Shown: positions 201-52,598, counted from the stretch's first letter. The stretch is 58,647 nt of DNA from Vulcanimicrobiota bacterium (GCA_964658425.1 CAZZYZ010000001.1:1-58647); one strand, 5' to 3'. Program-made: numbers and translations. Notes: generated by a model from the sequence alone, not told the origin.

Positions 201-506
201 GGGATGATGGTGGAATCGGTAGACACAGCAGACTTCAATTGGAGCCGGCCGCACGGAAACGGCGGTCGGGATGCGCTCAAAGTCGGTGAACTCTTCGCGG
301 CCGGTGCCGCATGACGACGCCGAGCCAAGCCGTCCGCGCGAGCGGCGGAAGGTGTAGAGACTGGACGGGCGCGGCCTACGTGTCGCAAGGCATAGGGTCA
401 AGGCACAGTCCGGACCATCAAACGCCGCGAGGCGGTGGCGAAAGCCATAGTGGTGCGAAAATTTGCCGCTCGTGAGAGCATCCGAGTTCGAGTCTCGGTC
501 GTCCCA
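201..506 (+). tRNA. trnL: tRNA-Leu(UAA) split by a 222-nt intron in the anticodon loop (exon 1 = 201-235, exon 2 = 458-506)
   Basis: The joined exons give an 84-nt type-II cloverleaf. Acceptor gggatga/tcgtccc (one G.U). D-stem gtg/cac with a GG-containing loop. Anticodon stem gcaga/tttgc (one G.U). Loop c-t-T|A-A-a-a gives anticodon TAA. Long variable arm gctc-gtga-gagc. T-arm ccgag-ttcgagt-ctcgg. Discriminator a506. CCA is not encoded. Confidence 0.9.
236..457 (+). ncRNA. Group I (IC3-like) intron inserted between anticodon nt 34 and 35 of tRNA-Leu(UAA); no internal ORF
   Basis: Splice-site U235 can form a U.G wobble with G242 in a short P1 hairpin (233-236/241-244). P2-like hairpin 245-269 is capped by GAAA. 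Core strings: ctcaaagtcgg (276-286), gagccaagcc (322-331), cagtcc (406-411). GNRA hairpins cgcc-gcga-ggcg (423-434) and tggc-gaaa-gcca (436-447). Terminal G457 abuts exon 2. The insertion site and the 35-nt exon 1 match my recollection of the cyanobacterial/plastid trnL intron. Confidence 0.8.
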
Positions 507-4332: not shown

Positions 4333-4791
4333 TCAGTCGGTAAGCTTCAGCATCATCTCGTCCGCGGACGAGAACCCGACCGCACCGTAGAGCGCGCGCG
4401 CTTCGTCCGACGGGCGAAGCGAGAGCGAGATGAGGTTCGCCGCGCGTGCGTCCTCGAGCAGCAGCTTCATCATCGCGAGCGCGACGCCGGTCCGGCGCGC
4501 GTCCGGGACGACGTACACGGATTGGACGCGGCCCGCACGCTCGGAATCCAGATGCGGCCGCGGCATCGCCGCGTGGATGAGAAACCCCGCGGTCCCGATC
4601 GCTCGACCGTCACGTTCCGCGACCCGCGCGACGTACGTCCCGCCCGCGAGATGACCCGCTAAAAATGTCGTCCACGCCGGGAGCACCTCTCGGATCTCCG
4701 AGACGCTCCATCCGCTGACTTCTCGCCACACGGCCGCACGATGCTCCGCGAGCAACGAAGCATCAGCGACCGAAGCGTGCCGAATCGTCAT
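4333..4791 (-). CDS. GNAT-family N-acetyltransferase
   Basis: Internal ATG (MTIRHASVADA...) of track ORF 4333-4848. Acetyl-CoA binding-type segment VVPDARRTGVALAMMKLLLEDA. Confidence 0.8.
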   Translation of the reverse strand: MTIRHASVADASLLAEHRAAVWREVSGWSVSEIREVLPAWTTFLAGHLAGGTYVARVAERDGRAIGTAGFLIHAAMPRPHLDSERAGRVQSVYVVPDARRTGVALAMMKLLLEDARAANLISLSLRPSDEARALYGAVGFSSADEMMLKLTD

Positions 4792-4989
4792 CGCCCGCAT
4801 TTCTCGCCGCCCCCCACGCCATCCGCCGCCCACGCGCCGCCACCGCAACGATCCGTCTCATAGCGCAACCGACCCCGCCACCCCGCGTCGCGCAACGCAA
4901 CATCACGTGACGTTATTTACCTCGGCATCAAACCCACCGAACGCACCGACGCTCGTGCCTACGAAAGACGCGAGGACGGTCCGTCCCCA

Positions 4990-6033
4990 CTAAGGAACGA
5001 CGCTGATGGCGATCGATACCAACTCCGGCAGCAGCAGATCGCCGACGAGGGCGAAGTGCAATCCCTCTTCGTTCCAGGTCAGGAGCGTCGTCGGGCCGTC
5101 TTCGACGTACTCGGCATCGTGATTGTCGAAGCGCGTCGTCTTGGGGCGCAGCGTTCCGAAATCGGCGGCGGCGCCGCGCGCGTTTTCGAAGAGCGAGATC
5201 GACCGTAGCCCGTCGCTGTAGACGAGCTGCAACGTTCGCACTCCGTCCACCGTCGTGACCGCGGCGCTCGTTACCGCGAAGCCTTGCGGCAACACCTTGG
5301 GCTCGATCGGCTTGAAGCCGGCTTCCCTGAGCGCGCGCGCAACGTCGCTGGAAGGCGTCGCGAGATCGACGCCGGCCTGCTTCGTGTAGCCGGTCGGAAT
5401 CTCCGAATCGAAGACGTCCGGCGGGATCGCGGCGGTGAAGCCGATCTCTTCGAAGCGCGACTGGGCGGCGACCGAACCGTTCGCGTGATACTCTTCTTTT
5501 TTCAGCGCGAGATGCGACTCGCGGTCGAGCCAAATTCGAACGGCCCGTTCGCCCGTGTAGCGATTGACGAGGACGATCGAGATCGTCGGCCGGTCGGCGA
5601 CGATCCCCTCACCGTCGGCGACGACGCGATAGTTGCGCATGACGCGATCGAACTCGCCGGTCGGCGAGATCGCGTTATCGATCGTCGGATCGTGGCTGAT
5701 CGTGACGTTCTTGCGTTTCGTGTCGAACTCGTAATTCGTGAGCCCGCGCGTGACGACGTAATCGCCGTAGATCGATTCGGGCGCGAGGTACCAGCGCCGC
5801 GTCGCATCGGGTGCGAGATGTTCGATCTTGACGATCGTCGCGCTCGCGCGATTCGAGCTGAAGCGGACCGTATCGAATTGGCCGACGTACGAAACGGTGC
5901 GCGGAGCGTCGATGCTCTCGCGCAACAGCGTTTCGAGCGACGCGTCGCTCCCGGCAACGCTCGGTGCGGCGCCCGCGAGCCCGAAGGCCAGCGACGCCGC
6001 GGCGAACGAACCCGCGATCCTACGGCACGGCAT
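4990..6033 (-). CDS. RseB/MucB-like sigma-E regulatory protein (LolA-like fold), exported
   Basis: Internal ATG 6033 (MPCRRIAGSFAAASLAFGLAGA...) of track ORF 4990-6432. The start overlaps the anti-sigma stop by 14 nt. Domain pattern and position downstream of sigma/anti-sigma fit MucB/RseB. Confidence 0.75.
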   Translation of the reverse strand: MPCRRIAGSFAAASLAFGLAGAAPSVAGSDASLETLLRESIDAPRTVSYVGQFDTVRFSSNRASATIVKIEHLAPDATRRWYLAPESIYGDYVVTRGLTNYEFDTKRKNVTISHDPTIDNAISPTGEFDRVMRNYRVVADGEGIVADRPTISIVLVNRYTGERAVRIWLDRESHLALKKEEYHANGSVAAQSRFEEIGFTAAIPPDVFDSEIPTGYTKQAGVDLATPSSDVARALREAGFKPIEPKVLPQGFAVTSAAVTTVDGVRTLQLVYSDGLRSISLFENARGAAADFGTLRPKTTRFDNHDAEYVEDGPTTLLTWNEEGLHFALVGDLLLPELVSIAISVVP

Positions 6034-6574
6034 CGAACCTCTCGGTCGAGGCGAAGCCGACGTACTGCCGAGCGAGGAGCGCCGGCGCGGCGTTCGCCGC
6101 ACCGTCGCCGGCGCCGTCGACCATCGCGGTCTCCATGTTTTGCGGACCCGACGGCGCGGCGAACGGCGTCCGGCTCGCTTGGGCCGCATGCGCTTCCAAA
6201 TAATAGAGCGCGTCGATCTTCGGACTCGCCCCACCCGGATGCGCGAGCGGCGATGCGAAGTACCCGCCGACCAGGAGCGCCGCCGCGATCGGAATTGCGA
6301 ATGCGGGCCGTAAGAACGCGCGCATCCGCGCGAGCGTCGAGGGCCGGCCTTCGCGGATCCGCTGCCAGACGGCGGCCGAGACGAGCGACGGGAACTCGCG
6401 TTCGTCCGCGGCGAGCGAGACGCGCAGCGCATCGGCGAGCGAACGCTCCGCTTCGAGCTCCGCGGTACACACGTCGCAGGCCGCGACGTGGGCGTAGACC
6501 AGCGCGTCGTCGGCCGGGGCCAGTTCGCCGTGGAGGTAATCGATGAGGGAGTCGTTCGTAATGTGCTGATTCAT
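6020..6574 (-). CDS. Anti-sigma factor, zf-HC2 type, single TM
   Basis: Internal ATG 6574 (MNQHITNDSLIDYLHGEL...HVAACDVC) of track ORF 6020-6664. ATGA overlap with the sigma gene stop. TM segment AFAIPIAAALLVGGYF. Confidence 0.85.
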   Translation of the reverse strand: MNQHITNDSLIDYLHGELAPADDALVYAHVAACDVCTAELEAERSLADALRVSLAADEREFPSLVSAAVWQRIREGRPSTLARMRAFLRPAFAIPIAAALLVGGYFASPLAHPGGASPKIDALYYLEAHAAQASRTPFAAPSGPQNMETAMVDGAGDGAANAAPALLARQYVGFASTERFDAVP

Positions 6575-19091: not shown

Positions 19092-19167
19092 TCCCGAATA
19101 GCTCAGTTGGTAGAGCAGCTGACTGTTAATCAGCGGGTCTCTGGTTCGAGTCCAGATTCGGGAGCCA
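19092..19167 (+). tRNA. trnN: tRNA-Asn(GTT), CCA encoded
   Basis: 76-nt canonical cloverleaf. Acceptor tcccgaa/ttcggga, D gctc/gagc, anticodon stem gctga/tcagc with loop ctGTTaa, T-arm tctgg-ttcgagt-ccaga, discriminator g, CCA. Confidence 0.95.
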
Positions 19168-19991: not shown

Positions 19992-20390
19992 ATGTCCGCG
20001 CGCGCCGTCGACCTCATCGATCGCTATCTCCTGGGCGAGCCCGTCTCGAAGCCGGACGTGGTCGCATCGCTGCTGCGGGAACGCACGACCGAACCGGCGG
20101 CGGCGCCGTTCTATCGCGCTTTCGAAGCGGTCGGCGCGCGGGCGGCCGACGAGGCGTTCATCGCGCTGCGTCTCGTCCTTGCAGGGCGCGCTCCCGAGGA
20201 CGACGCCGTCGCGCGTTTGCGAGCGTTCGCGCGGATCGCTCGCGCGTGCGCGACGGGCGACACGACCGGCCTTCGCGCGCTCGAGGGCAAGGAACGCGCT
20301 CACGTTCCGGACCTCCCGTGGTCGGCGGGCCCGGCGGCGCTCGGAGCCGCGGCGAAGGCGGGCTTCCGCGAGGCGCTCGGTGCGCTGTGA
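19992..20390 (+). CDS. Hypothetical protein
   Basis: In-frame ATG 19992 (alternative 19920) of track ORF 19518-20390. Ala/Arg-rich helical protein, no family recognised. Codon bias is compatible with coding. Confidence 0.35.
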   Translation: MSARAVDLIDRYLLGEPVSKPDVVASLLRERTTEPAAAPFYRAFEAVGARAADEAFIALRLVLAGRAPEDDAVARLRAFARIARACATGDTTGLRALEGKERAHVPDLPWSAGPAALGAAAKAGFREALGAL

Positions 20391-20454
20391 TCGCAGGTCC
20401 GGTCGACCATCGGTCGGGAACGCATCCCATCCCCCCGCCCGTTCACTAGGTGTG

Positions 20455-20802
20455 ATGCCTCGGTCGTTCGCCATTCTGCTCGTCGCCGGTGCGCTCTCGT
20501 TCGGGACGCTCGGCTTTGCGATGCCCGCCGCGGTCCGCGGCGATGAGACCGCCGATGCGAAGCCCGCGACGAATGCGGGGACCGTTACCGGGACCGTCTC
20601 GGCGATCGACTATCGCTCGAATACGATGACGCTCGATGCGAAGGGCCGCAAGATCGCCGTAACGATCTTGCCGAGCACGTCGATCCAAGGTGCGGGGAGC
20701 GGCTTCCATTCCTCGACCGACATCAAGCGCGGTGCGCGCGTGACGGTCTTGCTGAGCGAACGCGCGGGGATGTTCTCCGCCCAATTGATCACGCTGCACT
20801 GA
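20455..20802 (+). CDS. Small secreted protein, single OB/beta-barrel-like domain (DUF5666-like)
   Basis: ATG 20455 (MPRSFAILLVAGALSFGTLGFA signal) in track ORF 20179-20802. Pattern GTVSAIDYRSNTMTLDAKGRKIAVTILPSTSI...IKRGARVTV. Confidence 0.6.
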   Translation: MPRSFAILLVAGALSFGTLGFAMPAAVRGDETADAKPATNAGTVTGTVSAIDYRSNTMTLDAKGRKIAVTILPSTSIQGAGSGFHSSTDIKRGARVTVLLSERAGMFSAQLITLH

Positions 20803-20845
20803 CGCAGCCGAAGTATCGCCGTGCCGCCGCTGCGAAGGGCGTGTC

Positions 20846-21862
20846 GTGGCGGAGGTGAGTCTCGCGCGGATCGACCTCTCGTTTGGCCGCGGGCCGAACG
20901 CGGTCGCGGCGTTGCGCGACGTCTCGTTCGACGTCCCGGCCGGCTCCCGGCTCGCGATCCTCGGCCCTTCGGGCTGCGGGAAGACGACGCTGCTGCGCGT
21001 GATCGCCGGCCTCGAACGCCCGTCGCGCGGGACGCTGCGCTTCGACGGCGTCGATATCGACGCGATTCGCCCCGAACGTCGGCGCGTCGGGTTCGTCTTC
21101 GCGAGCGACGCGCTCTTCCCGCATCTCTCGGCGCGCGAGAACATTGCGTACGGCGTTCGCGGTGACGCGCGGCGGCGCATCGACGATGTCGCGGAACGCT
21201 GCCGGATCGGCGAGCTCCTCGAGCGCAAGCCGCGCGAACTCTCGGGCGGCGAACGGCAGCGCGTCGCGCTCGCGCGCGCGCTCGCGAGCGACCCGCGCGT
21301 CCTTCTGCTCGACGAGCCGTTCTCGCGGCTCGATGCGCCGCTTCGGCTCGAACTGCGCCGCGAGATCGCGCGCATCCAACGCGAGGCCGCGCTCACGGCG
21401 ATCGTGGTGACGCACGATCAGGAAGAGGCGCTCGCGCTCGGCGATCGGGTCGCGGTCATGCGGGCGGGCCGGATCGAACAGCTCGGGGCGCCGCGCGCGC
21501 TCGTCGACGACCCCGCGACGGCCTTCGTCGCCGGTTTCGTCGGATCGCCCGCGATGGCGTTCCTGCCGGCGTCCGCGCTCGGCATCACGGATGCGCCCAT
21601 GGGAGCGCTCGCCGGGATCCGTGCCGCCGACGTGCACTTGGGCGCCCCGGGTCGCCTCACGGCGCCGGTCCTCGGCGTCGAGGACGGTGCGGAACGCGCG
21701 ATCGTGCAGCTCGGGTTCGCGGGCGCGACGCTCGGCGCCGTCGTCGCGGGCGGTGAGCCGCGCCCGATCGTCGGCGAACGCGTCCGCTTCGACGTCGATC
21801 CCGATCGCGCGCTGCTCTTCGACGCGGACGGCGCGCGCCTCGAACGTCGAATCCGTGCCTGA
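20846..21862 (+). CDS. ABC transporter ATP-binding protein, MalK/UgpC/MsiK-like (sugar-importer type); no permease or binding-protein gene adjacent
   Basis: 338-aa ORF with a GTG start. Walker A GPSGCGKTT, signature LSGGERQRVALARA, Walker B LLLDEP, and a C-terminal MalK-like regulatory domain. Confidence 0.9.
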   Translation: MAEVSLARIDLSFGRGPNAVAALRDVSFDVPAGSRLAILGPSGCGKTTLLRVIAGLERPSRGTLRFDGVDIDAIRPERRRVGFVFASDALFPHLSARENIAYGVRGDARRRIDDVAERCRIGELLERKPRELSGGERQRVALARALASDPRVLLLDEPFSRLDAPLRLELRREIARIQREAALTAIVVTHDQEEALALGDRVAVMRAGRIEQLGAPRALVDDPATAFVAGFVGSPAMAFLPASALGITDAPMGALAGIRAADVHLGAPGRLTAPVLGVEDGAERAIVQLGFAGATLGAVVAGGEPRPIVGERVRFDVDPDRALLFDADGARLERRIRA

Positions 21863-23354
21863 CCTCGAACGGCTCGCGGGCCGCGTTCTCTGCGTCGGCT
21901 TGCCCGGACCGGAGGCGGACGGCGCGTTGCTCGCGCGGCTGCGCCGGCTCGGGCCCGGCGCGATCGTCCTTTTCGCGCGCAACGTCGAATCGGTCGCCGG
22001 CGCGCGCGCGCTCGTCGGGGTCCTGCGCGCGGCGCTCGCGAGCGACGGCTCCATCGCCGTATGCGTCGATCAGGAGGGTGGGCGCGTCGCGCGGATCCCG
22101 CTCGAGAGCCCGATGCCCGCGATGCTCGCACTCGGCGCGACGGACGATCCCGCGCTCGCCGAGCGGGTCGGCCGCGCGCTTGCGGCGACGCTACGCGCGA
22201 TCGATGCCGACGTCGCGTTCGCACCCGTCCTCGATCTCGCGACGAATCACGCGAGCACGGTCATCGGAACGCGCTCGCTCGGCGAGGATCCGGTCCGCGT
22301 CGCCGTGCTCGGCGCCGCGCTCGTGCGCGGCCTGCAGGCGGGCGGCGTCGTTGCGACGCCCAAGCATTTTCCCGGGCACGGAGCGACCGCGGCCGACTCG
22401 CATACGTCGCTGCCGCGCCTCGACGCGCCGCTCGCGACGCTGCGCGCGCGCGAGTGGGAGCCGTTCCGGGCGGCGTTCGCGGCGGGTGCGCGGGCCGTGA
22501 TGACGGCGCACGTCGTCGCACCCGAGCTCGATCCGGCGCGTCCGGCGACGCTTTCGGCGCGCGTGCTCGGAGCGTTACGCGAGGAGCTCGGGTTCGCGGG
22601 CACGTGCTTCACCGATTGCCTCGAGATGGCGGCCGTCGCCGAGGGCTTCGGCACGGCGCGGGCCGGAGTGCTCGCGTTGCGGGCGGGGGCCGATTGCCTC
22701 GTCGTCAGCGCGGATCTCGATCGCGCCGAAGAGCTCCGGGTCGAGATCGTTCGGGCGGTCCGCGCGGGGACGCTGCCGCTCGCGCGGCTCGAGCGGGCGG
22801 CGGCGCGCGTCGCGAGCCTCGTCCCGGGGCGGACGGCTACGGGCGAACCCGACCCGTCGCCGATCGACGCGGCGGCGGTCGCGAAAGAAGTCGCGGCGCG
22901 CGCGATCGTCACCGTTCGCGGCGAGCCGCGGATCGTCGCGGGTTCCGCGGCGACGGTGATCTCGTTCGAGGGCGGTTCGGGCGACGGGGTCGCGGCGAGT
23001 TCGGGCGAGCGTCCGTCGCTCAGCGCCGCGCTGCGTCGCCGGCGCGTGCGGAGCGAAGCGATGCGCGTCCCGCTCGATCCGAGCCCGGGCGCGGTCGAAG
23101 CGCTGCTCGACGTCCTCGGCGATCAGCCCGGGCGCTCGCTCGCGATCGTCACGCGGCGGGCGCACCTCTATGCGGGTCAGCGTGCAACGATCGGCGCACT
23201 GCTCGCGGCGTTTCCCCACGCGATCGTCGTCTCGGCGCTCGAGCCGTACGACCTCGCGGCGAGCGCCGCCGCGCGGCACGTCGCGTGCACGTTCGGCGAC
23301 GATGCGACGACGATCGATGCGCTCGCCGACGCCCTCGTGAGCGGCGCGCGATGA
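21855..23354 (+). CDS. nagZ: Beta-N-acetylhexosaminidase NagZ (GH3) with C-terminal extension; no signal peptide
   Basis: GTG 21855 in track ORF 21591-23354, overlapping the ATPase stop by 8 nt. Motifs DQEGGRV and KHFPGHG are GH3 N-domain hallmarks. Confidence 0.85.
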   Translation: MPDLERLAGRVLCVGLPGPEADGALLARLRRLGPGAIVLFARNVESVAGARALVGVLRAALASDGSIAVCVDQEGGRVARIPLESPMPAMLALGATDDPALAERVGRALAATLRAIDADVAFAPVLDLATNHASTVIGTRSLGEDPVRVAVLGAALVRGLQAGGVVATPKHFPGHGATAADSHTSLPRLDAPLATLRAREWEPFRAAFAAGARAVMTAHVVAPELDPARPATLSARVLGALREELGFAGTCFTDCLEMAAVAEGFGTARAGVLALRAGADCLVVSADLDRAEELRVEIVRAVRAGTLPLARLERAAARVASLVPGRTATGEPDPSPIDAAAVAKEVAARAIVTVRGEPRIVAGSAATVISFEGGSGDGVAASSGERPSLSAALRRRRVRSEAMRVPLDPSPGAVEALLDVLGDQPGRSLAIVTRRAHLYAGQRATIGALLAAFPHAIVVSALEPYDLAASAAARHVACTFGDDATTIDALADALVSGAR

Positions 23355-24427
23355 ACGCCGCCGATGCGGTCCTGCGCGATGCGTGCGGCTCGCGTTTCAC
23401 CGCGGCGGTCCTACGCGTCGAGCGCGGCGGGCGGCTCGCCTTCGAGCGCGCGTACGGTGCGGTCGACGACGCGCCGGGCGCGCGGCGTATCGACATCGCG
23501 ACGCCCTTCGATCTCGCGTCGCTCACGAAGCTCTTCGTCGCGACCGCCGCACTCGAAGCCGTCGCGCGCGGGGCGCTCGAAGTCGACGCGCCGCTCGCGG
23601 CGCTCGTCCCGGCCTGGCGCGGGACCGCGCACGAACGGGTCACGCTGCGAATGCTGCTCGCGCACGCGTCCGGGATGGCCTCGGGCGCCGATTACCGTAC
23701 GCTGCGCGAGCGCAGCGTCGAGACGTTCGCGATCGAACGCGAACTCGCCGGCGTTCCGGGCGCCGCGGTCATCTACAGCGATCTCGGCTTCATCGCTCTC
23801 GGGGCCGTCGTCGCGCGCGCGAACCGCGCGGCGCTCCCCGCGGCGCTGCGACCGGTCCTCGCGTGTCTGCGAACCGAGGCGACGGCGTATCGGCCCCGCA
23901 ACGACGGCGTGGCCGCGATCCCGGCGACGGAGCTCGACGGATGGCGCGGGCGCGTTCGCGGCTTCGTTCACGACGAGAAGGCGTACCTGATGAACGGCAT
24001 CGCGGGGCACGCCGGGCTCTTCGGAACCGCGCGCGACGTGGCCGCGCTCGCGGAGGCGTATCTCGCGCACGTGCGCGGTCGCGAACACGCGCTCTTGCCG
24101 CCCGCGCTCGCGCGCGACGCGATCGCCGAGCAGGCGGCCGATCCCGTTTTGCGGCGCGGCCTCGGTTGGGCGCTCAAGACGAGCGATGCGAACTCGTGCG
24201 GCGCGGCGATGTCGCGCGAAACGTTCGGCCACACGGGCTTCACGGGGACCTCGGTCTGGGTCGACCCCGCGCGCGATCTGTCGATCGTGTTGCTTACGAA
24301 CGCCGTCTACTTCGGCCGCGGGGATCTGCGCGACGTTCGTGCCGCCGTTTGCGATGCCGTCGCCGCGTGGTCCGATGCCGGAGCGCCTTCGGGCGTCGGC
24401 TGCGAATCGAACGCGGACCTGCGATGA
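23351..24427 (+). CDS. Beta-lactamase/transpeptidase-fold serine hydrolase (class C/AmpH-like); candidate AmiE-type MurNAc-L-Ala amidase; no signal peptide
   Basis: ATG 23351 in track ORF 22061-24427 (ATGA overlap with nagZ). SxxK = SLTK, YSD(L)G, HTGFTG box. Confidence 0.75.
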   Translation: MNAADAVLRDACGSRFTAAVLRVERGGRLAFERAYGAVDDAPGARRIDIATPFDLASLTKLFVATAALEAVARGALEVDAPLAALVPAWRGTAHERVTLRMLLAHASGMASGADYRTLRERSVETFAIERELAGVPGAAVIYSDLGFIALGAVVARANRAALPAALRPVLACLRTEATAYRPRNDGVAAIPATELDGWRGRVRGFVHDEKAYLMNGIAGHAGLFGTARDVAALAEAYLAHVRGREHALLPPALARDAIAEQAADPVLRRGLGWALKTSDANSCGAAMSRETFGHTGFTGTSVWVDPARDLSIVLLTNAVYFGRGDLRDVRAAVCDAVAAWSDAGAPSGVGCESNADLR

Positions 24428-25602
24428 GCGTGCGCGCGATCGGGCTCATGTCGGGGACGTCGCTCGACGGGATCGACGCCGCACGCGTCGCGCTGCGTCC
24501 CCGCGGCGACGGATACGACGTGAACGTTGAAAACTTCATCACCGTACCGTTCGAGGATCCGCTGCGCGAGCGCATCCTCGCGGCGCTCCCGCCGAGCGCG
24601 CCGACCGTCGAGGAGGTGTGCGCGCTCGACGCGGTGCTCGGCGACGCGTTCGCCTCGGCCGCGCGCGAAGCGGCGGCGGGTCTCGCAATCGATTACGTCG
24701 CGACGCACGGGTTGACCGCATTCCATCGCGGCGAGGCCTCGCTCACGCTGCAGATCGGATCGCCGTACGCGATCCGCGACGCCGCGCGGGCGAGCGTGGT
24801 CTTCGATTTTCGACGTGCGGATTGCGCCGCCGGCGGCAACGGCGCGCCGCTCGTCCCGTACGTCGACGGGCTGCTCTTCGCGGCGCCGGGGGAAGACGTC
24901 GTCGCGCTCAATCTCGGCGGGATCGCGAACGTCACGGTGCTGCGCGGCGATCGTTCCCCGAGCGCTGCGATCGCGTTCGATACGGGTCCGGCGAACATGC
25001 TGCTCGACGCTTTCGTACGGGACCGTACGGGTGGCCGCGAGCGCTGCGATCGAGACGGCGCGTACGCGCTGCGCGGCGAGCCCGCTCGCGCGATCGTGAG
25101 CGAGCTCGCGCGCCGCAATGCGGCGTATCTCGACGCGCCGCCGCCGAAATCGACGGGCCGCGAACGTTTCGGGGCGCACGCGCTGCACGCGCACGCCGAT
25201 CTGCTCGCGCCGCTCTCGCTTCACGACGGCTGCGCGACGCTCGTCGCGTTCACCGTCGCGACGATCGGCGATGCGCTCGGCGCTCACGCCCCCGCCGGAG
25301 CGCGCGTGATCGCGAGCGGCGGCGGAGCGCGCAATCCCGCCCTCGTCGCCGCGCTCGCGCGTCGCATCGCGGAGCGCGGCGGGTCGCTCGTGCTCTCGGA
25401 CGCGCTCGGCCTCGACGCGGATGCGAAGGAGGCCGTCGCGTTCGCGGTGCTCGGCTACGAAACGCTGCGCGGCCGTCCGGCGAATCTGCCGAGCGCGACG
25501 GGCGCCCGCCGCCCCGCGATCCTCGGCGCGATCGCTCCGTACGATCTCGCGGCGCTGCTCGACAAGATCGCGCGCGATGCCGCGACGAATGGTGCCGCAT
25601 GA
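24424..25602 (+). CDS. anmK: Anhydro-N-acetylmuramic acid kinase
   Basis: ATG 24424 in track ORF 23383-25602 (ATGA overlap). N-terminus IGLMSGTSLDGIDAA and full-length AnmK pattern. Confidence 0.9.
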   Translation: MSVRAIGLMSGTSLDGIDAARVALRPRGDGYDVNVENFITVPFEDPLRERILAALPPSAPTVEEVCALDAVLGDAFASAAREAAAGLAIDYVATHGLTAFHRGEASLTLQIGSPYAIRDAARASVVFDFRRADCAAGGNGAPLVPYVDGLLFAAPGEDVVALNLGGIANVTVLRGDRSPSAAIAFDTGPANMLLDAFVRDRTGGRERCDRDGAYALRGEPARAIVSELARRNAAYLDAPPPKSTGRERFGAHALHAHADLLAPLSLHDGCATLVAFTVATIGDALGAHAPAGARVIASGGGARNPALVAALARRIAERGGSLVLSDALGLDADAKEAVAFAVLGYETLRGRPANLPSATGARRPAILGAIAPYDLAALLDKIARDAATNGAA

Positions 25603-26498
25603 ACGAGCGGATCGCGGTCGGGATCGATGCGGGCGGCACGGCGACGGCGGCGGCGAGTTCGTGCGGCGGCACGCGCGCGGCGAGCGCGCGCGAGGGTCCG
25701 GCGAACGCGAGTTCGGCCGGGACGACGGCCGCGCTCGCGACGATCATGCGTGCGGTGAGCGCGGTGACCGGCGGCCGCATCCCGAGCGCGCTCTACGTCG
25801 CGGCGGCCGGGGCGGGCCGCGAAGAGATTCGAACGAGTTTGGAAGGCGGTCTTCGCGCCGCGTATCCCGGGGCGCGCCTCGCCGTCGAGAGCGACGTGCG
25901 CGTCGCGCTCCGTGCGACGCTGCCGGCCGGGCCCGGGATCGTGCTGATCGCCGGGACCGGGAGCGTCGCCTACGCGGAATCGGGCGACCGTCGCGCGCGC
26001 GTCGGCGGCGCCGGCTATCTGCTCGGCGACGAGGGTTCGGCGTACGCGATCGGATTCGCGGCGTTGCGGCGGCTCGCGCGCGTCTTCGACGGCCGCGAAC
26101 GCGAAGACGAGACGACCGCGCTCGCGGCTCGCGCGCTCGACGCGCCGGATCGCGACGCGCTGCTGCGCGCGCTCTACGCGAAGCCGGTCGACGTGGCGAC
26201 GATCGCCGCCCTCGCGCCGAGCGTGATCGCATTCGCGGCGAAAGGCAATCGCGTCGCGATGAAGATCGTGCAGGACGCGGCGCGCGAGCTCGGCGACCTC
26301 GTCCTCGCCGCCGCGCGCGCCGCGGAACTGCGCGACGCATCGCCCGCCGTCGTTCTGGCGGGCGGTCTCCTGCGCGAGAACTCCGTGCTCTCGTTTCTGC
26401 TCGAGACGCGGATCGCGGGCGATCTTCCCGGCGCGAACGTGCTGCGCGCGCATGCCGAGCCCGTCGATGCGGCGCTCGCGTTCGCCGAGGCATTGTGA
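25599..26498 (+). CDS. BadF/BadG/BcrA/BcrD-type ATPase = GlcNAc/MurNAc kinase (NagK/MurK-like)
   Basis: ATG 25599 in track ORF 24618-26498 (ATGA overlap). GIDAGGT, AGTGSV and GGAGYLLGDEGSAY motifs. Confidence 0.8.
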   Translation: MNERIAVGIDAGGTATAAASSCGGTRAASAREGPANASSAGTTAALATIMRAVSAVTGGRIPSALYVAAAGAGREEIRTSLEGGLRAAYPGARLAVESDVRVALRATLPAGPGIVLIAGTGSVAYAESGDRRARVGGAGYLLGDEGSAYAIGFAALRRLARVFDGREREDETTALAARALDAPDRDALLRALYAKPVDVATIAALAPSVIAFAAKGNRVAMKIVQDAARELGDLVLAAARAAELRDASPAVVLAGGLLRENSVLSFLLETRIAGDLPGANVLRAHAEPVDAALAFAEAL

Positions 26499-27391
26499 GC
26501 GACGGACTCTCCGCGGTCACGGAGGCGATCAACGCCGCGACGCACGATCTCGATTTGCTCGCGACGGCCGATCTCGTCGCGCTGCTCGGCCGCGAACAGC
26601 GCGCGGCGGCGGAAGCGGTCGAACGCGCGACGCCGCAGATCGCGCGTGCGGTCGATGCGATCTCCGCGCGCCTGCGCGACGGCGGCTCGCTGCATTACGT
26701 CGGCGCGGGGACGAGCGGGCGACTCGCGACGCTCGACGCCGCGGAATGTCCGCCGACGTTCGGGACGCCCGCGAAACTCGTCGTCGCGCACGTCGCCGGG
26801 GGTGCGTCCGCGCTCGTGCGCGCGATCGAGGGCGCCGAAGACGACGCGGCCGCCGGTGCCGCGGCGGTCGCGGCGCTCGCGCCGTGCGACGTCGCCGCGT
26901 GCATCTCCGCGAGCGGCCGCGCGCCGTTCGTCGTGGCCGCGCAGCGCGCCGCACGCGCCCGCGGCGCGCTGACGATTGCGGTGACGAGCGACGCGGATTC
27001 GCCGCTCGCACGCGAAGCCGAGATCGCGATCGCGGTCGCGACCGGCCCCGAGCCGCTCGCCGGTTCGACGCGCCTCAAGGCCGGGACCGCGCAGAAACTC
27101 GTGCTCAATGCCCTCTCCACGGCGACGATGGTTCGGCTCGGAAAAGTCTACGACAACGTGATGATCGACGTCGTCGCCACGAACGCGAAACTGCGCGTGC
27201 GCGCGCGGCTGCTCGTGGAGTCGCTCGCGACGGTCGATGCCGCGGAGGCCGAGCGATTGCTTCGCGCCGCGGACGGCAGCGCGAAGGTCGCCGTCGCGAT
27301 GGCGCGGCTCGGCATCGATGCGCCCGCAGCTCGCGCCGCGCTCGCGGGCGTCGGCGGCTTCCTACGGCCGCTGATGTCGCCGCGCGCGTGA
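26495..27391 (+). CDS. murQ: N-acetylmuramic acid 6-phosphate etherase
   Basis: GTG 26495 in track ORF 25421-27391 (GTGA overlap). SIS-domain signature LHYVGAGTSGRLATLDAAECPPTFG. TRLKAGTAQKLVLN. Confidence 0.92.
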   Translation: MSDGLSAVTEAINAATHDLDLLATADLVALLGREQRAAAEAVERATPQIARAVDAISARLRDGGSLHYVGAGTSGRLATLDAAECPPTFGTPAKLVVAHVAGGASALVRAIEGAEDDAAAGAAAVAALAPCDVAACISASGRAPFVVAAQRAARARGALTIAVTSDADSPLAREAEIAIAVATGPEPLAGSTRLKAGTAQKLVLNALSTATMVRLGKVYDNVMIDVVATNAKLRVRARLLVESLATVDAAEAERLLRAADGSAKVAVAMARLGIDAPAARAALAGVGGFLRPLMSPRA

Positions 27392-29046
27392 GCGCGGCGT
27401 CGCGCGTTCGCGTCGCCGTATCCGCGCTCGCGATTTTCTTCTCGTGGTGCGCGCTCGTACGCACGCCGATGCCGTCGAGCGCCTCGGCGAACGATGCACC
27501 CGCCGCGCCGATCGTTGCGCAAACGGTGTTGCGGTCGATCGCCTTCGTGCCGCTCGACGATCGGCCCGTGACGTTGCAGTTGCCGATCGATCTCGGCACG
27601 ATCGCGGGGCAGCCGGTGCTGACGCCGCCGCGTGCGACGATCGGTAACTATCTGCGGCCAGGCGACGGCGATGCGATCCTACGGTGGCTTACCTCCGATG
27701 CGACCCGCGGTGCGAGCGCGCTCGTCGCGTCGACCGACATGATCGCGTACGGCGGCCTCGTCGCGTCGCGGATACCCGGCATCGCTGCGGACGATGCGTA
27801 CGTACGCCTTCGCGCGCTCGCGGATCTCAAAGCGTCGCGCGAGCTCGGGTTCGTCGGTGCGTTCGCGACGGTGATGCGGCTCGCTCCGACGGGCGTTCCG
27901 CGACTCGGTTTGGCAATGAACTATTATGCGACCGGGCGGACGGTCGATGACCTGCAGGCGTATGCGAACCTCCCCGACCCGCCGGCTTCGGCCGCGGACC
28001 GCGGGAAGGCGACGCGCTTGCGCGCGGCGATCGGCCCGACCGCGCTCGACGCCTATCTCGCGACGCGGCGCCGAAATCGCGCCGTCGACACCTTCGCGCT
28101 CGAGCTCGCGTCGCGCGGCGGTTTCGATCGGCTCGTCATCGGCCAGGACGATGCGGGGCCGGTCGGCCTGCACCTCAGGGACGTCGCGGCCCTCGAAGGG
28201 ACGGCGCGGGATCTCGGCCTCGGCGAGCGTGCCGCGATCGAACCGGGCGCCGACGAACTCGGCATGGTGCTCCTCGCGCAGGCCTTCGCACGCAACGTCG
28301 GCTGGCTGCCGACCGTACGCGTCGTCTATTCGCGGCCCGACGGCGGCGCGGTGAACGATCGCCTCGAATTCGCGCCGATCGACGTGACGATCGCTCGGCT
28401 GATCGCGGGCTGCGGCGCGCGCCGCGTCGCGCGGGACGCCGACGTGACGCTCTACGTACGCGTCGGCGGCACGAACGACGCCGACGAGCGAACGTTCGAG
28501 GACGGCCTGGTCGCCGACGTTCGCGCCGGGCGCAGCGTCACCGTCGCCGATCTCACGTTCCTCGACGGCGAGCCCGGGCCGCAGCAGCGCGAGCTGACCG
28601 AAGCGCTCGTCGCGAGCGGGGTCGCGGGGCGGCTCGACGGTTTCGCGTCGTGGAACACGGATGCGAACACCGTCGGCACGTCGCTCGCGGCCGCGATCGC
28701 GGCGGGCGCGGGGAGGCGCGCGGGGCGATTCGACGCGCGCGCGCTCGCCGCGTTCCTCCTCGATCGCTACGTCGACGATTACGCGTTCCATCAATACGTG
28801 CGGCCCGCGCTCAATCGCACGCTGCGCGCCGACGATATCGATACGACGCTGCTGCTGCCCGAGATCGCACGCGAGGCGGCTTCGCAGAATCGCGGCGATC
28901 TCTGGCCCTACGCGGTCGATTTACTCGCGAGAATTTTTCCGCAATACGGTGACGCCGGGCTCACGATCACGCTGCCGTGGAGCCGGACGTTCGAAACGCA
29001 GATCGACGTCCGCTTACGAGCGGCGAACCCGACGCGGCGCCCGTAA
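27388..29046 (+). CDS. Exported DUF4127-like protein of unknown function
   Basis: GTG 27388 in track ORF 26452-29046 (GTGA overlap with murQ). Signal-peptide-like N-terminus (VAVSALAIFFSWCALV...SASA). The about 550-aa length and the IAFVPLDDRPV motif match my recollection of DUF4127; the family call is from memory only. Confidence 0.6.
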   Translation: MSAASRVRVAVSALAIFFSWCALVRTPMPSSASANDAPAAPIVAQTVLRSIAFVPLDDRPVTLQLPIDLGTIAGQPVLTPPRATIGNYLRPGDGDAILRWLTSDATRGASALVASTDMIAYGGLVASRIPGIAADDAYVRLRALADLKASRELGFVGAFATVMRLAPTGVPRLGLAMNYYATGRTVDDLQAYANLPDPPASAADRGKATRLRAAIGPTALDAYLATRRRNRAVDTFALELASRGGFDRLVIGQDDAGPVGLHLRDVAALEGTARDLGLGERAAIEPGADELGMVLLAQAFARNVGWLPTVRVVYSRPDGGAVNDRLEFAPIDVTIARLIAGCGARRVARDADVTLYVRVGGTNDADERTFEDGLVADVRAGRSVTVADLTFLDGEPGPQQRELTEALVASGVAGRLDGFASWNTDANTVGTSLAAAIAAGAGRRAGRFDARALAAFLLDRYVDDYAFHQYVRPALNRTLRADDIDTTLLLPEIAREAASQNRGDLWPYAVDLLARIFPQYGDAGLTITLPWSRTFETQIDVRLRAANPTRRP

Positions 29047-49688: not shown

Positions 49689-52598
49689 TCAGGCGTGCGC
49701 GACGATGGCGTCGTCGATCGCATCCGCGAGCGCTTCGAGCCCCGTGTCGAGTGGGAGCGCGAGATGGATGCGCGCGCCGCGCCGGTCGCGCGAATCGAGC
49801 GATTCGAAATCGCCGAGCGCTTGCGAGCGCAGCAGCGTTCCGAACGAGACCATCCCCGGGATATCGAGATCGTCCGACTTCGGCGTATCGGTCGTCAGCT
49901 GGAAGAAGACGCCGGTGTTCGGCCCGCCCTTGTGCAGCTGACCCGTCGAGTGCAGGAAGCGCGGCCCGAATCCGACGGTCGTCGCGACTTTGAGCGCGTT
50001 ACGGACCGCGAGCCGGATCTCGCGCAATTGCTGCTCGTGCGCTTCGTTCCGTTCGACGTACGCGTTGAACGCGACGTAATCGCCCGGTTCGATCTGCGCG
50101 ACGATCGCGCGAACGGCGCTGCGCAGATCGCTCCCGAGATCGATCTTCTTCGAACCGGAGATCGGAAAGATCTCCGCGAGCTTCGAGCTCTGCTTCGGCT
50201 CGGGCTCGCCGAACGTGCCCTGCCTCACGTACTCCGCGAGCAGGCGCTTCGTATTGTCCTTGGATTCTTGCACGTTGGGCTGATCGAAGGCATCGATCCC
50301 GAGGACGCTCCCGGCGGCCGCGGTCGCGACTTCCCACAGCGCGAATTGCGCGCCGATGTCGAGCGTATCGGCCATCGCGAGCCGGATCACCGGATGGCCC
50401 GCCTCTTGAAGTGCGGCGAGCCGCGTCTCGATCGTCGATGCGTCCATCTCGGCGTGCACGTGGCCGCCCGCGGGGAGCCCGGCGCCGACGTAGACGAAGA
50501 CGCGGTCGTTGCCGTAGTCGTGCGGCATCCCGAGCGGCTCGCCCTCGATCGGCACGATCCCGGTGCCGCTCTTCCCGGTCGATTCCGCCACGAGCTGTTC
50601 CGCCCAGGCGCCGAATGCGGCGATGGCGGGATGCGTGACGATCGTCAGCTTATCGCGGCCGGCCTTCGCGAGCGATCCGAGCGCGGCACCGAAGACGACG
50701 GCGTATGCATCGTCGACCTTCGTCGTGCGCGCGTTCGCGTCGAGGACGCCGAGGCCGCGATCGACGATCGCCGCGGCATCGTAGCCGGCGAGCGCTGCCG
50801 GAACCATGCCAAAAAACGAGAGCGCGGAGTAGCGGCCGCCGATGTTCGGATCGTTCTCGAAGATGCGCAAGAATTTCGCATCCTTGGCTTCCGATTCGAG
50901 CTTCGTCCCGGGATCGGTGATGGCGATGAAGTGATCGCCCGCGCGATCGACGCCGACCGTTTTCTGGACGCGCTCGAAGAAGTAGCGGAAGAACGCCTCG
51001 GGTTCGGTCGTCGAGCCGCTCTTGCTCGCGACGATGAACAGCGTACGCTCGAGATCGAGCGCCGCTTCGAGCGTCTTGACCTGTAACGGATCGCTCGAAT
51101 CGAGCACGTGGAGCTCGGGTCGATTCTCGAGTTTCCCGAACGTCACGCGTAGCGTGTCGGGGGCGAGCGAACTGCCGCCCATGCCGAGGACGACGACGTG
51201 CGCGAACGTCTTCGCGACGTCGCTCGCGAACGTCACGAGTTCGAGCGCGCGTTCGTGAACGGTTCTCGGAAAGTCGAGCCAACCGAGGGCGTTCGAGATG
51301 ATCTTGACGTGTGCCGGATCGGACGACCACGGCGACGCGTCGTGTGCCCAGAGCTTCGCGAGAAAATCGTTGCGTGAAAGCTCGTCGAGCGCCGAGCGCG
51401 CCGCTGCCGTGCCGTCTCCGAGCGAGAGCTCGACGTGCGCCGCCGCGCCGCCGCCGCCGCTCCCGTTCCCATTCGGGCCGCCGTCGCCGCGAAGTTTCGA
51501 CTGCTTCTCACGAATCGCATCGAGCATCTTGTCGTACGAATCGGAGAACGACTGCAAGCCGTCGACTTGCAACTTTTGCGTGACGTCGAAGAGCGAGATG
51601 TTCGCAGCCGTGAGCCCGTCGAGCGTCGTCTGCGCGCTCTCGAAATTTCGCTCGACCGTGTCGGGCACGACGCGGCCGTGATCGAGAAAATCATCGAGCG
51701 TCGCCGGCGGGACCGTATCGACGGTATTCTTGCCGATGAGATTCTCGACGTACATCACGTCGCGATACGCCGGATTCTTCGTGCCGGTGCTCGCCCAAAG
51801 CGGCCGCTGCACGCGAGCCCCCTTCGCCTCGAGCTTTTCGAACCGTTCGCCCTCGAAGATTTCCTTGTAGCGCTTGTAGATGAGCTTGACGTTCGCGATG
51901 CCCGTCTTCCCGAGCAGCGGTTCGAGCGCTTGCTCGCCGTTTTTGATCCGCGTCTCGAGCTGCGCATCGATCGCGCTGTCGATCCGGCTGATGAACACGC
52001 TCGCGACCGAGGCGACGCGATCAACCGGCTCGCCCGCAGCGACGCGTTTCTCGATACCCTTGACGTAGGCATCGGCGGTCGCCGCATACGTATCGACGGA
52101 GAAGATGAGCGTGATGTTAACGTTGATGCCGGCCGCGATCACGTCCGTGACCGCGAGCAGGCCCTCGGGCGTGGCCGGGATCTTGATCATCACGTTCGGT
52201 CGATCGACGAGCGCCCAGAGCCGCTTCGCGGATTCAATCGTCTTCGCGGTATCGTGCGAGACGCCGGGGGAGACTTCCAAGCTGACGTATCCGTCGCCGC
52301 CGCCGGTCGAATCGTAGAGCGCGCGAAATTCGTCGCACGCGTGCTGGATATCGTCCGATGCGATCGCTTCGAAGAGCAGGTTCGCGTCGTCTTCCTTGCC
52401 GATCAGGCTCTTGAGTTGTGCGTCGTAATCGTTGCCGCTGCCGATCGCCTTTTCGAAGATCGTCGGATTGGAGGTCATCCCACGGACCCCCACCTCGATG
52501 AGCCGATGCAGTTCGCCCGATGCGAACATGCTGCGCCGAATGTTGTCGAGCCAAATGCTCTGTCCGGCTTCGTGCAAGGCGTTGAGGTTGGAATCCAT
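49689..52598 (-). CDS. tal-pgi: Bifunctional transaldolase / glucose-6-phosphate isomerase fusion
   Basis: 969-aa ORF. The N-terminal about 370 aa are transaldolase (QSIWLDNIRR, GMTSNPTIF, KIPAT). The C-terminal about 550 aa are a PGI-type SIS domain (VVLGMGGSSL, SKSGSTTE). Confidence 0.9.
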   Translation of the reverse strand: MDSNLNALHEAGQSIWLDNIRRSMFASGELHRLIEVGVRGMTSNPTIFEKAIGSGNDYDAQLKSLIGKEDDANLLFEAIASDDIQHACDEFRALYDSTGGGDGYVSLEVSPGVSHDTAKTIESAKRLWALVDRPNVMIKIPATPEGLLAVTDVIAAGINVNITLIFSVDTYAATADAYVKGIEKRVAAGEPVDRVASVASVFISRIDSAIDAQLETRIKNGEQALEPLLGKTGIANVKLIYKRYKEIFEGERFEKLEAKGARVQRPLWASTGTKNPAYRDVMYVENLIGKNTVDTVPPATLDDFLDHGRVVPDTVERNFESAQTTLDGLTAANISLFDVTQKLQVDGLQSFSDSYDKMLDAIREKQSKLRGDGGPNGNGSGGGGAAAHVELSLGDGTAAARSALDELSRNDFLAKLWAHDASPWSSDPAHVKIISNALGWLDFPRTVHERALELVTFASDVAKTFAHVVVLGMGGSSLAPDTLRVTFGKLENRPELHVLDSSDPLQVKTLEAALDLERTLFIVASKSGSTTEPEAFFRYFFERVQKTVGVDRAGDHFIAITDPGTKLESEAKDAKFLRIFENDPNIGGRYSALSFFGMVPAALAGYDAAAIVDRGLGVLDANARTTKVDDAYAVVFGAALGSLAKAGRDKLTIVTHPAIAAFGAWAEQLVAESTGKSGTGIVPIEGEPLGMPHDYGNDRVFVYVGAGLPAGGHVHAEMDASTIETRLAALQEAGHPVIRLAMADTLDIGAQFALWEVATAAAGSVLGIDAFDQPNVQESKDNTKRLLAEYVRQGTFGEPEPKQSSKLAEIFPISGSKKIDLGSDLRSAVRAIVAQIEPGDYVAFNAYVERNEAHEQQLREIRLAVRNALKVATTVGFGPRFLHSTGQLHKGGPNTGVFFQLTTDTPKSDDLDIPGMVSFGTLLRSQALGDFESLDSRDRRGARIHLALPLDTGLEALADAIDDAIVAHA

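Follow-up and report, generated by a model that had tools for sequence, protein, structure and literature searches.

A 222-nt ORF-less group I intron of a phylum-typical sub-lineage predicted in the tRNA-Leu(UAA) gene of a Vulcanimicrobiota bacterium

Introduction

A group I intron interrupts the tRNA-Leu(UAA) gene of cyanobacteria and plastids (Xu et al. 1990 and Kuhsel et al. 1990, as cited in PMC3984707), and this type of intron has long been treated as a cyanobacterial/plastid marker. A candidate of the same type lies at nucleotides 201 to 506 of a 58,647-nt stretch of DNA from a Vulcanimicrobiota bacterium (GCA_964658425.1, CAZZYZ010000001.1:1-58647; the whole stretch is referred to here as the window). 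The locus therefore raises the question of whether a genuine group I intron is present and, if so, whether its occurrence outside cyanobacteria is exceptional. An earlier note, made from the sequence alone, had regarded it as an unusual occurrence bearing on the origin of the intron.

We hold with high confidence that a Vulcanimicrobiota tRNA-Leu(UAA) gene is split between U34 and A35 by a 222-nt ORF-less IC3 group I intron, which is predicted to be spliced and belongs to a sub-lineage typical of its phylum. The intron is real, yet ordinary: the same split gene is found in well over a hundred other non-cyanobacterial species listed in our genome scan. The supposed cyanobacterial/plastid marker is common in other phyla, and the window case opens no new question on the origin of the intron.

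A tRNA-Leu(UAA) gene split in the anticodon loop

The two tRNA halves that the earlier note had placed at 201 to 235 and 458 to 506 were both recovered there by ARAGORN, with an insert of exactly 222 nt (236 to 457) parting U34 from A35 (Table 1). Exon 1 (GGGATGATGGTGGAATCGGTAGACACAGCAGACTT) and exon 2 (AAAATTTGCCGCTCGTGAGAGCATCCGAGTTCGAGTCTCGGTCGTCCCA), when joined, give an 84-nt type-II (class II) cloverleaf with the anticodon UAA; the tRNA call on these spliced exons, run with ARAGORN, was tRNA-Leu(taa), as had been expected. When introns were allowed, the genomic sequence yielded the same tRNA-Leu gene with a 222-nt intron in the anticodon loop. The predicted 235/458 ligation junction reads GCAGACTT on the exon 1 side and AAAATTTGCC on the exon 2 side, the discriminator is A506, and CCA is not encoded. 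A tRNA-Leu(UAA) split between nucleotides 34 and 35 falls in class Leu.3Ug. The acceptor stem reads GGGATGR, which is common to Eremiobacterota exons, whereas proteobacterial genes have GCGGACG. No second tRNA-Leu(UAA) was seen in the 58.6-kb window, where the sole other tRNA found by default ARAGORN is tRNA-Asn (19092 to 19167), and a simple consensus scan gave no promoter- or terminator-like site at the tRNA-Leu gene.

A minus-strand ORF of 160 codons (72 to 554) overlaps the tRNA-Leu/intron region and might be taken to mean that the locus is part of a protein-coding gene, the resemblance to an intron being due to chance. There is hardly any likelihood of this, since the antisense ORF has no Pfam match, long spurious ORFs occur throughout the window with its 67% GC, and the RNA-level matches reach E-values of 1e-25 to 1e-29.

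Predicted structure and splicing of the intron

Helices were assigned under the guidance of a curated alignment of bacterial tRNA introns (Williams 2020, supplementary gpI.sto), and all 70 proposed intron pairs are standard pairs in the window. The marks of a group I intron occur together, namely, U(-1) in a U·G wobble of P1, a terminal omega-G, and a covariation-supported P3-P8 core with the P3/P7 pseudoknot. Every hallmark picked out in the earlier note (U235·G242, the P2 hairpin, three core strings, two GNRA hairpins, and G457) is present, and the P3-P8 core, whose failure to fold it would have taken as a refutation, folds with standard pairs throughout. The minimum-free-energy fold includes P2, P3, P6a, P8/P8a, and the P9 region; its energy is no better than that of shuffled sequences (z = -1.19), which is usual for GC-rich RNA. 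A homing endonuclease gene has no room in the 222-nt intron, and no long ORF fits within it.

Table 1. Features of the split tRNA-Leu(UAA) gene, in window coordinates
Feature	Position	Strand	Description	Basis
tRNA-Leu(UAA) exon 1	201-235	+	35 nt; acceptor 5' strand, D arm, anticodon stem 5' strand, C32 U33 U34	ARAGORN
Group I (IC3-type) intron	236-457	+	222 nt, ORF-less, ends in omega-G457	nhmmer, covariance model, helix check
P1 with 5' splice site	233-236 with 241-244	+	C233-G244, U234-A243, U235·G242, C236-G241; loop AAUU	
P2 hairpin	245-269	+	10 bp, bulged A253, GAAA loop 256-259	also in minimum-free-energy fold
P3	273-278 with 367-372	+		
Core string CTCAAAGTCGG	276-286	+		
P4	283-288 with 318-323	+		
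P5	292-293 with 313-314	+		
P5a hairpin	297-310	+		
Core string GAGCCAAGCC	322-331	+		
P6	324-326 with 351-353	+		
P6a hairpin	330-348	+	bulged U333, GCGA loop	
P7	357, 359-362 with 407-411	+	bulged A358; 3' strand AGUCC; pseudoknot with P3	
P8	373-376 with 396-399	+		
P8a hairpin	380-393	+	GCAA loop	
J8/7	400-406	+	AAGGCAC; then P7 3' strand 407-411	
Core string CAGTCC	406-411	+		
P9	414-417 with 451-454	+	encloses P9a and P9b; then GCG ending in omega-G457	
P9a	423-434	+	GCGA loop	
P9b	435-448	+	GAAA loop (GNRA hairpin 436-447)	
tRNA-Leu(UAA) exon 2	458-506	+	49 nt; A35 A36, anticodon stem 3' strand, long variable arm, T arm, acceptor 3' strand	ARAGORN

By homology, the precursor RNA would fold into P1-P9, with P7 as the putative guanosine-binding helix. 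The U235·G242 wobble marks U235 as the 5' splice site, and the phosphate that follows it would be attacked by an external guanosine bound in P7; the terminal G457 would then occupy the guanosine site of P7, and the 3'-OH of U235 would attack after G457, so that the intron is released and the exons are ligated into an 84-nt tRNA. A short P10 could form if U239 paired with A459 and U240 with A458. Splicing by two transesterifications is established knowledge, with the IC3 introns of Azoarcus and Anabaena/Synechococcus as models (PMC3984707).

Detection by sequence profile and covariance models

A sequence profile (nhmmer) of 96 homologous introns, from which the window's clade/phylum was excluded, matched the window at 231 to 460 (E = 1.3e-29). 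Thirty introns from phyla other than that of the host served to build a covariance model (R1) of the P3-P8 core; along its whole length, this model matched 270 to 413 with 102.9 bits (E = 6.2e-25) and flagged no non-standard pair. Each was the sole match on both strands of the 58.6 kb. Together with the P1-P9 form, these matches bear out the earlier call of a group I intron that lacks an ORF and occupies the classical 34/35 site.

Standard tools are silent at this locus. Default ARAGORN, the Rfam tRNA model (RF00005), and the Rfam Intron_gpI model (RF00028) reported nothing at 201 to 506; at gathering thresholds, Rfam returned tRNA-Asn only across the whole window, and at E <= 10 on 100 to 650, it returned a spurious mir-263 match alone, with RF00028 absent. 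The window intron stays below the RF00028 gathering score (50 bits), and silence even at E <= 10 indicates that this intron clade has diverged from the Rfam model. Members of the aligned set from Alphaproteobacteria, Gammaproteobacteria, and Bacteroidota obtain 34 to 51 bits with RF00028 (50.9 for L035, 48.1 for L080, 44.9 for L002, and 34.3 for L003), but the model recognised none of the three Eremiobacterota loci tested, so the negative result reflects the model and not the sequence. The RF00028 check proposed in the earlier note thus came back empty, but it is invalid as a test of this intron, since the three loci of the same phylum are missed as well. A passage in Williams 2020 (bioRxiv 10.1101/2020.01.27.920355) gives the Rfam Intron_gpI model 12 seed sequences, none of them bacterial, and tRNAscan-SE is stated as not designed for group I introns (PMC8450103). 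Because the standard tools are silent at 201 to 506 and the three relatives are missed, tRNA-Leu(UAA) may be annotated as missing in the phylum; if it were scored as absent from these uncultured genomes, statistics on their tRNA complement and completeness would be affected.

Distribution among bacteria and covariation

We scanned 185,579 species-representative genomes for a pattern in which the D-loop and anticodon stem of tRNA-Leu are linked to the J3/4-P4 string of the intron. At least 121 matches in at least 120 loci were obtained, and none among the matches listed is titled as a cyanobacterium. The exons join cleanly as tRNA-Leu(UAA), with the same insertion site, in 106 of the 121 listed matches; 12 of the remaining 15 are candidates, with a 3' exon starting AAAAT at the expected distance and one anticodon-stem mismatch. 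The listed carriers are mostly Alphaproteobacteria and also include Gamma- and Betaproteobacteria, Bacteroidota, Planctomycetota, and five Vulcanimicrobiota/Eremiobacterota. With at least 106 clean cases in non-cyanobacterial species listed, the premise that a non-cyanobacterial trnL intron is exceptional does not hold, and the claim of an unusual occurrence bearing on the intron's origin has to be given up; cases outside cyanobacteria were, moreover, already in the literature (Williams 2020; PMC4853749).

Across the relatives, intron length ranges from 203 to 325 nt (median, 227 nt). The idea that this compact, GC-rich intron could be a useful minimal model did not survive the comparison, as 43 of the 106 relatives are shorter than 222 nt, and 8 of the 106 equal or exceed its GC content of 67%. 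The 205-nt Azoarcus intron is already a standard ribozyme model.

Some loci had further features. In a Proteobacteria MAG (JAFEFH010000001.1, L008), inverted matches to the tRNA-Leu pattern lie about 600 nt apart (5534-5613, plus strand; 6196-6268, minus strand), one of them being a clean split gene, and the split tRNA-Leu gene of Carnimonas nigrificans has a CRISPR array with CRISPR-DR4 repeats (Rfam) at a distance of about 500 nt (L035:3775-4223 and 4720-4932). The IC3 core motif AAGGTGYAGAGACTNGAYGGG had at least 120 matches in IMG/VR viral contigs (L204 onward); among the 120 listed, 119 belong to the non-cyanobacterial variant, and no close relative of the window intron is present. At least 25 of the matches are interrupted tRNA-Leu(UAA) genes. 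Many matches are only a few hundred bases away from where the contig stops, a position that suggests tRNA genes of the host next to prophages and not genes of the phages themselves.

U(-1) and G as the last intron base were each found in 107 of 107 clean genes, the window counted. A MAFFT alignment of 101 sequences (A1; 100 distinct homologues plus the window) has 68 invariant columns, every one common to the window intron, and U·G stands at the 5' splice-site pair in 100 of 100 homologues. P1, P3, P4, P5, P6, P7, and P8 are paired in 99.8 to 100% of cells, and two-sided changes occur at 48 of the 70 pairs. P3 is 100% paired, with four of its six pairs changed on both sides (e.g., CG:50/UA:49); P4, P5, and P6 are likewise 100% paired, one P5 pair being CG:53/GC:43/UA:4. 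P7 (99.8%) is almost invariant, P8 (99.8%) has one pair with GC:47/AU:44, and P9 and P9b are 90% paired with two-sided changes present. None of 500 shuffles attained the observed values, and sliding the 3' partners by one to three columns lowered pairing from 87% to 33 to 47%. Peripheral hairpins score worse in this alignment because MAFFT does not align length-variable loops. In seven aligned sequences of the phylum, P2 changes on both strands with pairing kept (a reading of the alignment, not a tool count). The motif AAGGCACAGTCC of the J8/7-P7 region is invariant in all seven aligned Eremiobacterota-clade sequences, and on our reading of the alignment, the core of this clade is invariant as a whole, with peripheral stems that vary and still pair.

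Judged from sequence, this combination of an invariant core, intact pairs, and varying yet still-pairing peripheral stems argues for a ribozyme under selection. A decayed, non-splicing intron, which would make the gene a tRNA pseudogene, might be suspected from the failure of the Rfam model to recognise it and from P5/J5, which on reading the alignment deviates from the tetraloop-receptor-like sequence of proteobacterial relatives; splicing itself, too, is predicted from homology. We consider decay very improbable, however, because no core pair is broken in the window (the NC line of the covariance model is empty), none of the invariant columns is lost, and the core of the clade has stayed constant while its peripheral stems changed and still pair. 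In addition, tRNA-Asn is the only other tRNA in the window, and the uninterrupted tRNA-Leu genes on the metagenome contigs examined look like alleles and not like a second copy.

The host and its intron sub-lineage

Sequence comparisons place the host, a soil bacterium, in Vulcanimicrobiota (= Candidatus Eremiobacterota, WPS-2) and not among cyanobacteria, because homologues of the fused transaldolase/phosphoglucose isomerase (Tal-Pgi), the tRNA exons, and the intron all point to this phylum; the earlier view of a non-cyanobacterial host is upheld on the same grounds. The window has 67% GC and encodes a TonB-dependent receptor, a TolC-type outer-membrane protein, a P450, MetK, AdoHcy hydrolase, ClpC, G6PD, transketolase, and the Tal-Pgi fusion, and no photosynthesis genes were found among the 20 window ORFs scanned. 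Among the 120 Tal-Pgi matches listed, those with an organism name belong to Ca. Eremiobacteraeota or Vulcanimicrobiaceae (64 to 69% identity), with the exception of one from Acidoferrales (63%); homologues without an organism label reach up to 71% identity among the matches listed. NCBI taxonomy places these genera in the phylum Vulcanimicrobiota, kingdom Bacillati.

The Tal-Pgi gene (49689 to 52598, minus strand; 969 aa) adjoins transketolase and glucose-6-phosphate dehydrogenase, and its homologues are abundant in Eremiobacterota-labelled and unlabelled soil/peat metagenome proteins. The segment from 20000 to 28000 has 72 to 75% GC, against 63 to 69% elsewhere in the window, and holds ORFs for a 788-aa protein with a beta-lactamase domain, a 626-aa BadF/BcrA-type ATPase, and an 864-aa DUF4127 protein.

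Exon identity between the window gene and five Eremiobacterota/Vulcanimicrobiota genomes (Ca. Tumulicola, Ca. Elarobacter, two further MAGs, and Vulcanimicrobiota bin6B) is 82 to 86%, and the median for the other listed loci is 60%. The same five genomes hold the nearest relatives of the intron among the listed genome loci (72 to 77% identity). In a neighbour-joining intron tree, the window intron, the five Eremiobacterota introns, and one Opitutus-binned contig form one cluster; with about 220 sites and a single cyanobacterial sequence, the deep branching is not readable from this tree. Synteny between the window and the five genome loci is not conserved within 8-kb pieces. From these comparisons, the interrupted tRNA-Leu gene looks native to the host phylum, and the intron would represent a sub-lineage typical of that phylum that travels with the phylum's own tRNA exons.

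The Opitutus-binned contig (DAITQE010000801.1, 1.8 kb, from a MAG labelled Opitutus sp.; L004:1431-1744) has Eremiobacterota-type exons that are 86% identical to those of the window and an intron inside the Eremiobacterota cluster. It is probably mis-binned rather than a Verrucomicrobiota case.

Occupied and empty forms of one locus

JGI metagenomes were scanned with exon 1 (35 nt, with R permitted at position 7), giving 82 stretches, of which 80 (L122-L201) were examined. An uninterrupted tRNA-Leu gene, in which CTT is directly followed by AAAAT, was found on 43 of the 80 contigs (e.g., L175, L139, and L160), and an intron-bearing gene was found on 36 (e.g., L195, L199, L171, and L173). The metagenome introns comprise 32 complete ones, 30 of them distinct (206 to 304 nt), while four others start with the intron and are cut by the contig end. 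One further contig (JAABUQ010002206.1; L192:1303-1337, minus strand) carries exon 1 plus AAAATCTG followed by unrelated sequence, i.e., a truncated 5' tRNA-Leu, which may have been left behind by an element that had integrated at the tRNA gene.

Occupied and empty contigs alike have the end of the same upstream gene 55 to 200 nt 5' of the tRNA and, on its 3' side, the TPR and deacetylase genes that come next in the window. Since upstream and downstream genes are the same in both states, the two forms look like alleles of one locus, not paralogues, on the contigs examined. The uninterrupted gene on L175 is identical to the window's joined exons at 83 of 84 nt and, being only 1 nt off, independently validates the predicted splice junction.

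Four mature tRNA sequences were found in occupied as well as in empty genes. Between carriers and non-carriers, the flanks share only 65 to 79% identity, so the polymorphism need not be recent and spans well-diverged lineages; a "recent" gain or loss of the intron was, for this reason, rejected as an established fact. The 32 complete metagenome introns are 73 to 84% identical to the window intron, as are introns of named Eremiobacterota genomes, and across the clade, exon identity does not predict how similar an intron is to that of the window. On L195, for instance, the exons are identical to those of the window and the intron is 76% identical, whereas L171 differs at two exon nucleotides and has an intron identity of 84%.

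The presence/absence polymorphism at an orthologous locus, the four mature tRNAs that occur in both states, the discordance between intron and exon similarity, and the spread of the same intron family over many phyla would all fit a recent lateral acquisition by this lineage, from cyanobacteria or proteobacteria, in place of an intron resident in the phylum. We nevertheless regard such an acquisition as unlikely: the nearest introns are all in the host phylum (72 to 84% identity, against 50% for Synechococcus and at most 70% for proteobacterial introns), the exons are also phylum-typical, 32 of 32 complete introns with a phylum-type exon 1 lie within the range of 73 to 84%, and the diverged flanks do not require a recent event.

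We therefore favour a phylum-resident sub-lineage, for which carriage or lack of the intron at the same chromosomal locus implies repeated precise loss and/or re-acquisition. It is conceivable, although we would not expect it, that the phylum's intron is still mobile without a homing endonuclease, through reverse splicing or recombination via identical exons, and that the trnL family is pan-bacterial, with the cyanobacterial/plastid intron as one branch. Continued mobility would explain the occupied and empty locus, the same mature tRNAs in both states, and the intron/exon discordance. A clear presence/absence polymorphism at one orthologous locus offers material for studying the gain and loss of ORF-less group I introns. 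That of this phylum's tRNA-Leu intron is undescribed and may be new, though its patchiness resembles that of cyanobacterial tRNA introns, which is known from the titles of Paquin 1997 and Rudi 2002 as cited in PMC3984707.

Comparison with known introns

Williams 2020 (bioRxiv 10.1101/2020.01.27.920355) reports that about 80,000 bacterial genomes contain 5292 tRNA genes split by group I introns, which fall into 21 site classes; the frequency is highest in Cyanobacteria, other phyla are represented, and a Leu.3Cg variant was found in Proteobacteria. Interrupted tRNA-Leu-TAA genes are also described in Thiomargarita and Beggiatoa (PMC4853749), the review of Hausner 2014 gives the distribution by phylum without detail, and a 2025 intron database paper treats bacteria without a phylum breakdown. 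No mention of introns in Vulcanimicrobiota/Eremiobacterota tRNAs was found in the searchable literature, and the sub-lineage, invisible to Rfam, may be new. A tRNA-Leu intron was reportedly described in a subsurface gamma-proteobacterium in a 2002 J Bacteriol paper, on which nothing here relies.

The window intron shares with the tRNA-Leu(UAA) introns of other phyla the tRNA, the insertion site, U(-1)/omega-G, the P1-P9 architecture, and a P9 region that includes two hairpins and a GAAA loop. Across this set, identity is 57 to 70%, with 65 to 70% for its nearest proteobacterial members. The introns of Vulcanimicrobiota/Eremiobacterota make up a separate cluster and have characteristic P2, P3, P5, and P8 sequences (e.g., GGGATGCGCTC, GGCC...GGTC, and AAGGCACAGTCC).

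Sequences transcribed from the curated alignment of Williams 2020, among them those of Synechococcus elongatus and Azoarcus, align with the window intron along its length. The earlier note had matched it to the cyanobacterial/plastid trnL(UAA) IC3 intron, and this stands for the tRNA, the insertion site, and the fold (Anabaena, Synechococcus), as well as for the core strings CUCAAA, GAGCCAAG, GGUG.AGAGACU, and AGUCC. The likeness does not extend to overall sequence, as identity to the tRNA-Leu intron of S. elongatus, the single cyanobacterial sequence compared, is about 50%, against 72 to 84% for host-phylum introns. Within the core, the window has GUAGAGACU and UCGG, whereas S. elongatus has GCAGAGACU and UCAGG.

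The Azoarcus tRNA-Ile intron is 61% identical to the window intron over about 200 aligned positions. Both are small, GC-rich, ORF-less IC3 introns of an anticodon loop, and they have in common the P2 GAAA loop, the P3-P8 core, and P7 with a bulged A. However, the Azoarcus intron resides in another tRNA and at another position of the loop (after nt 36/37, class Ile2.5Ug), and its P9 is a single hairpin, in contrast to the P9 of the window intron, which holds two inner hairpins.
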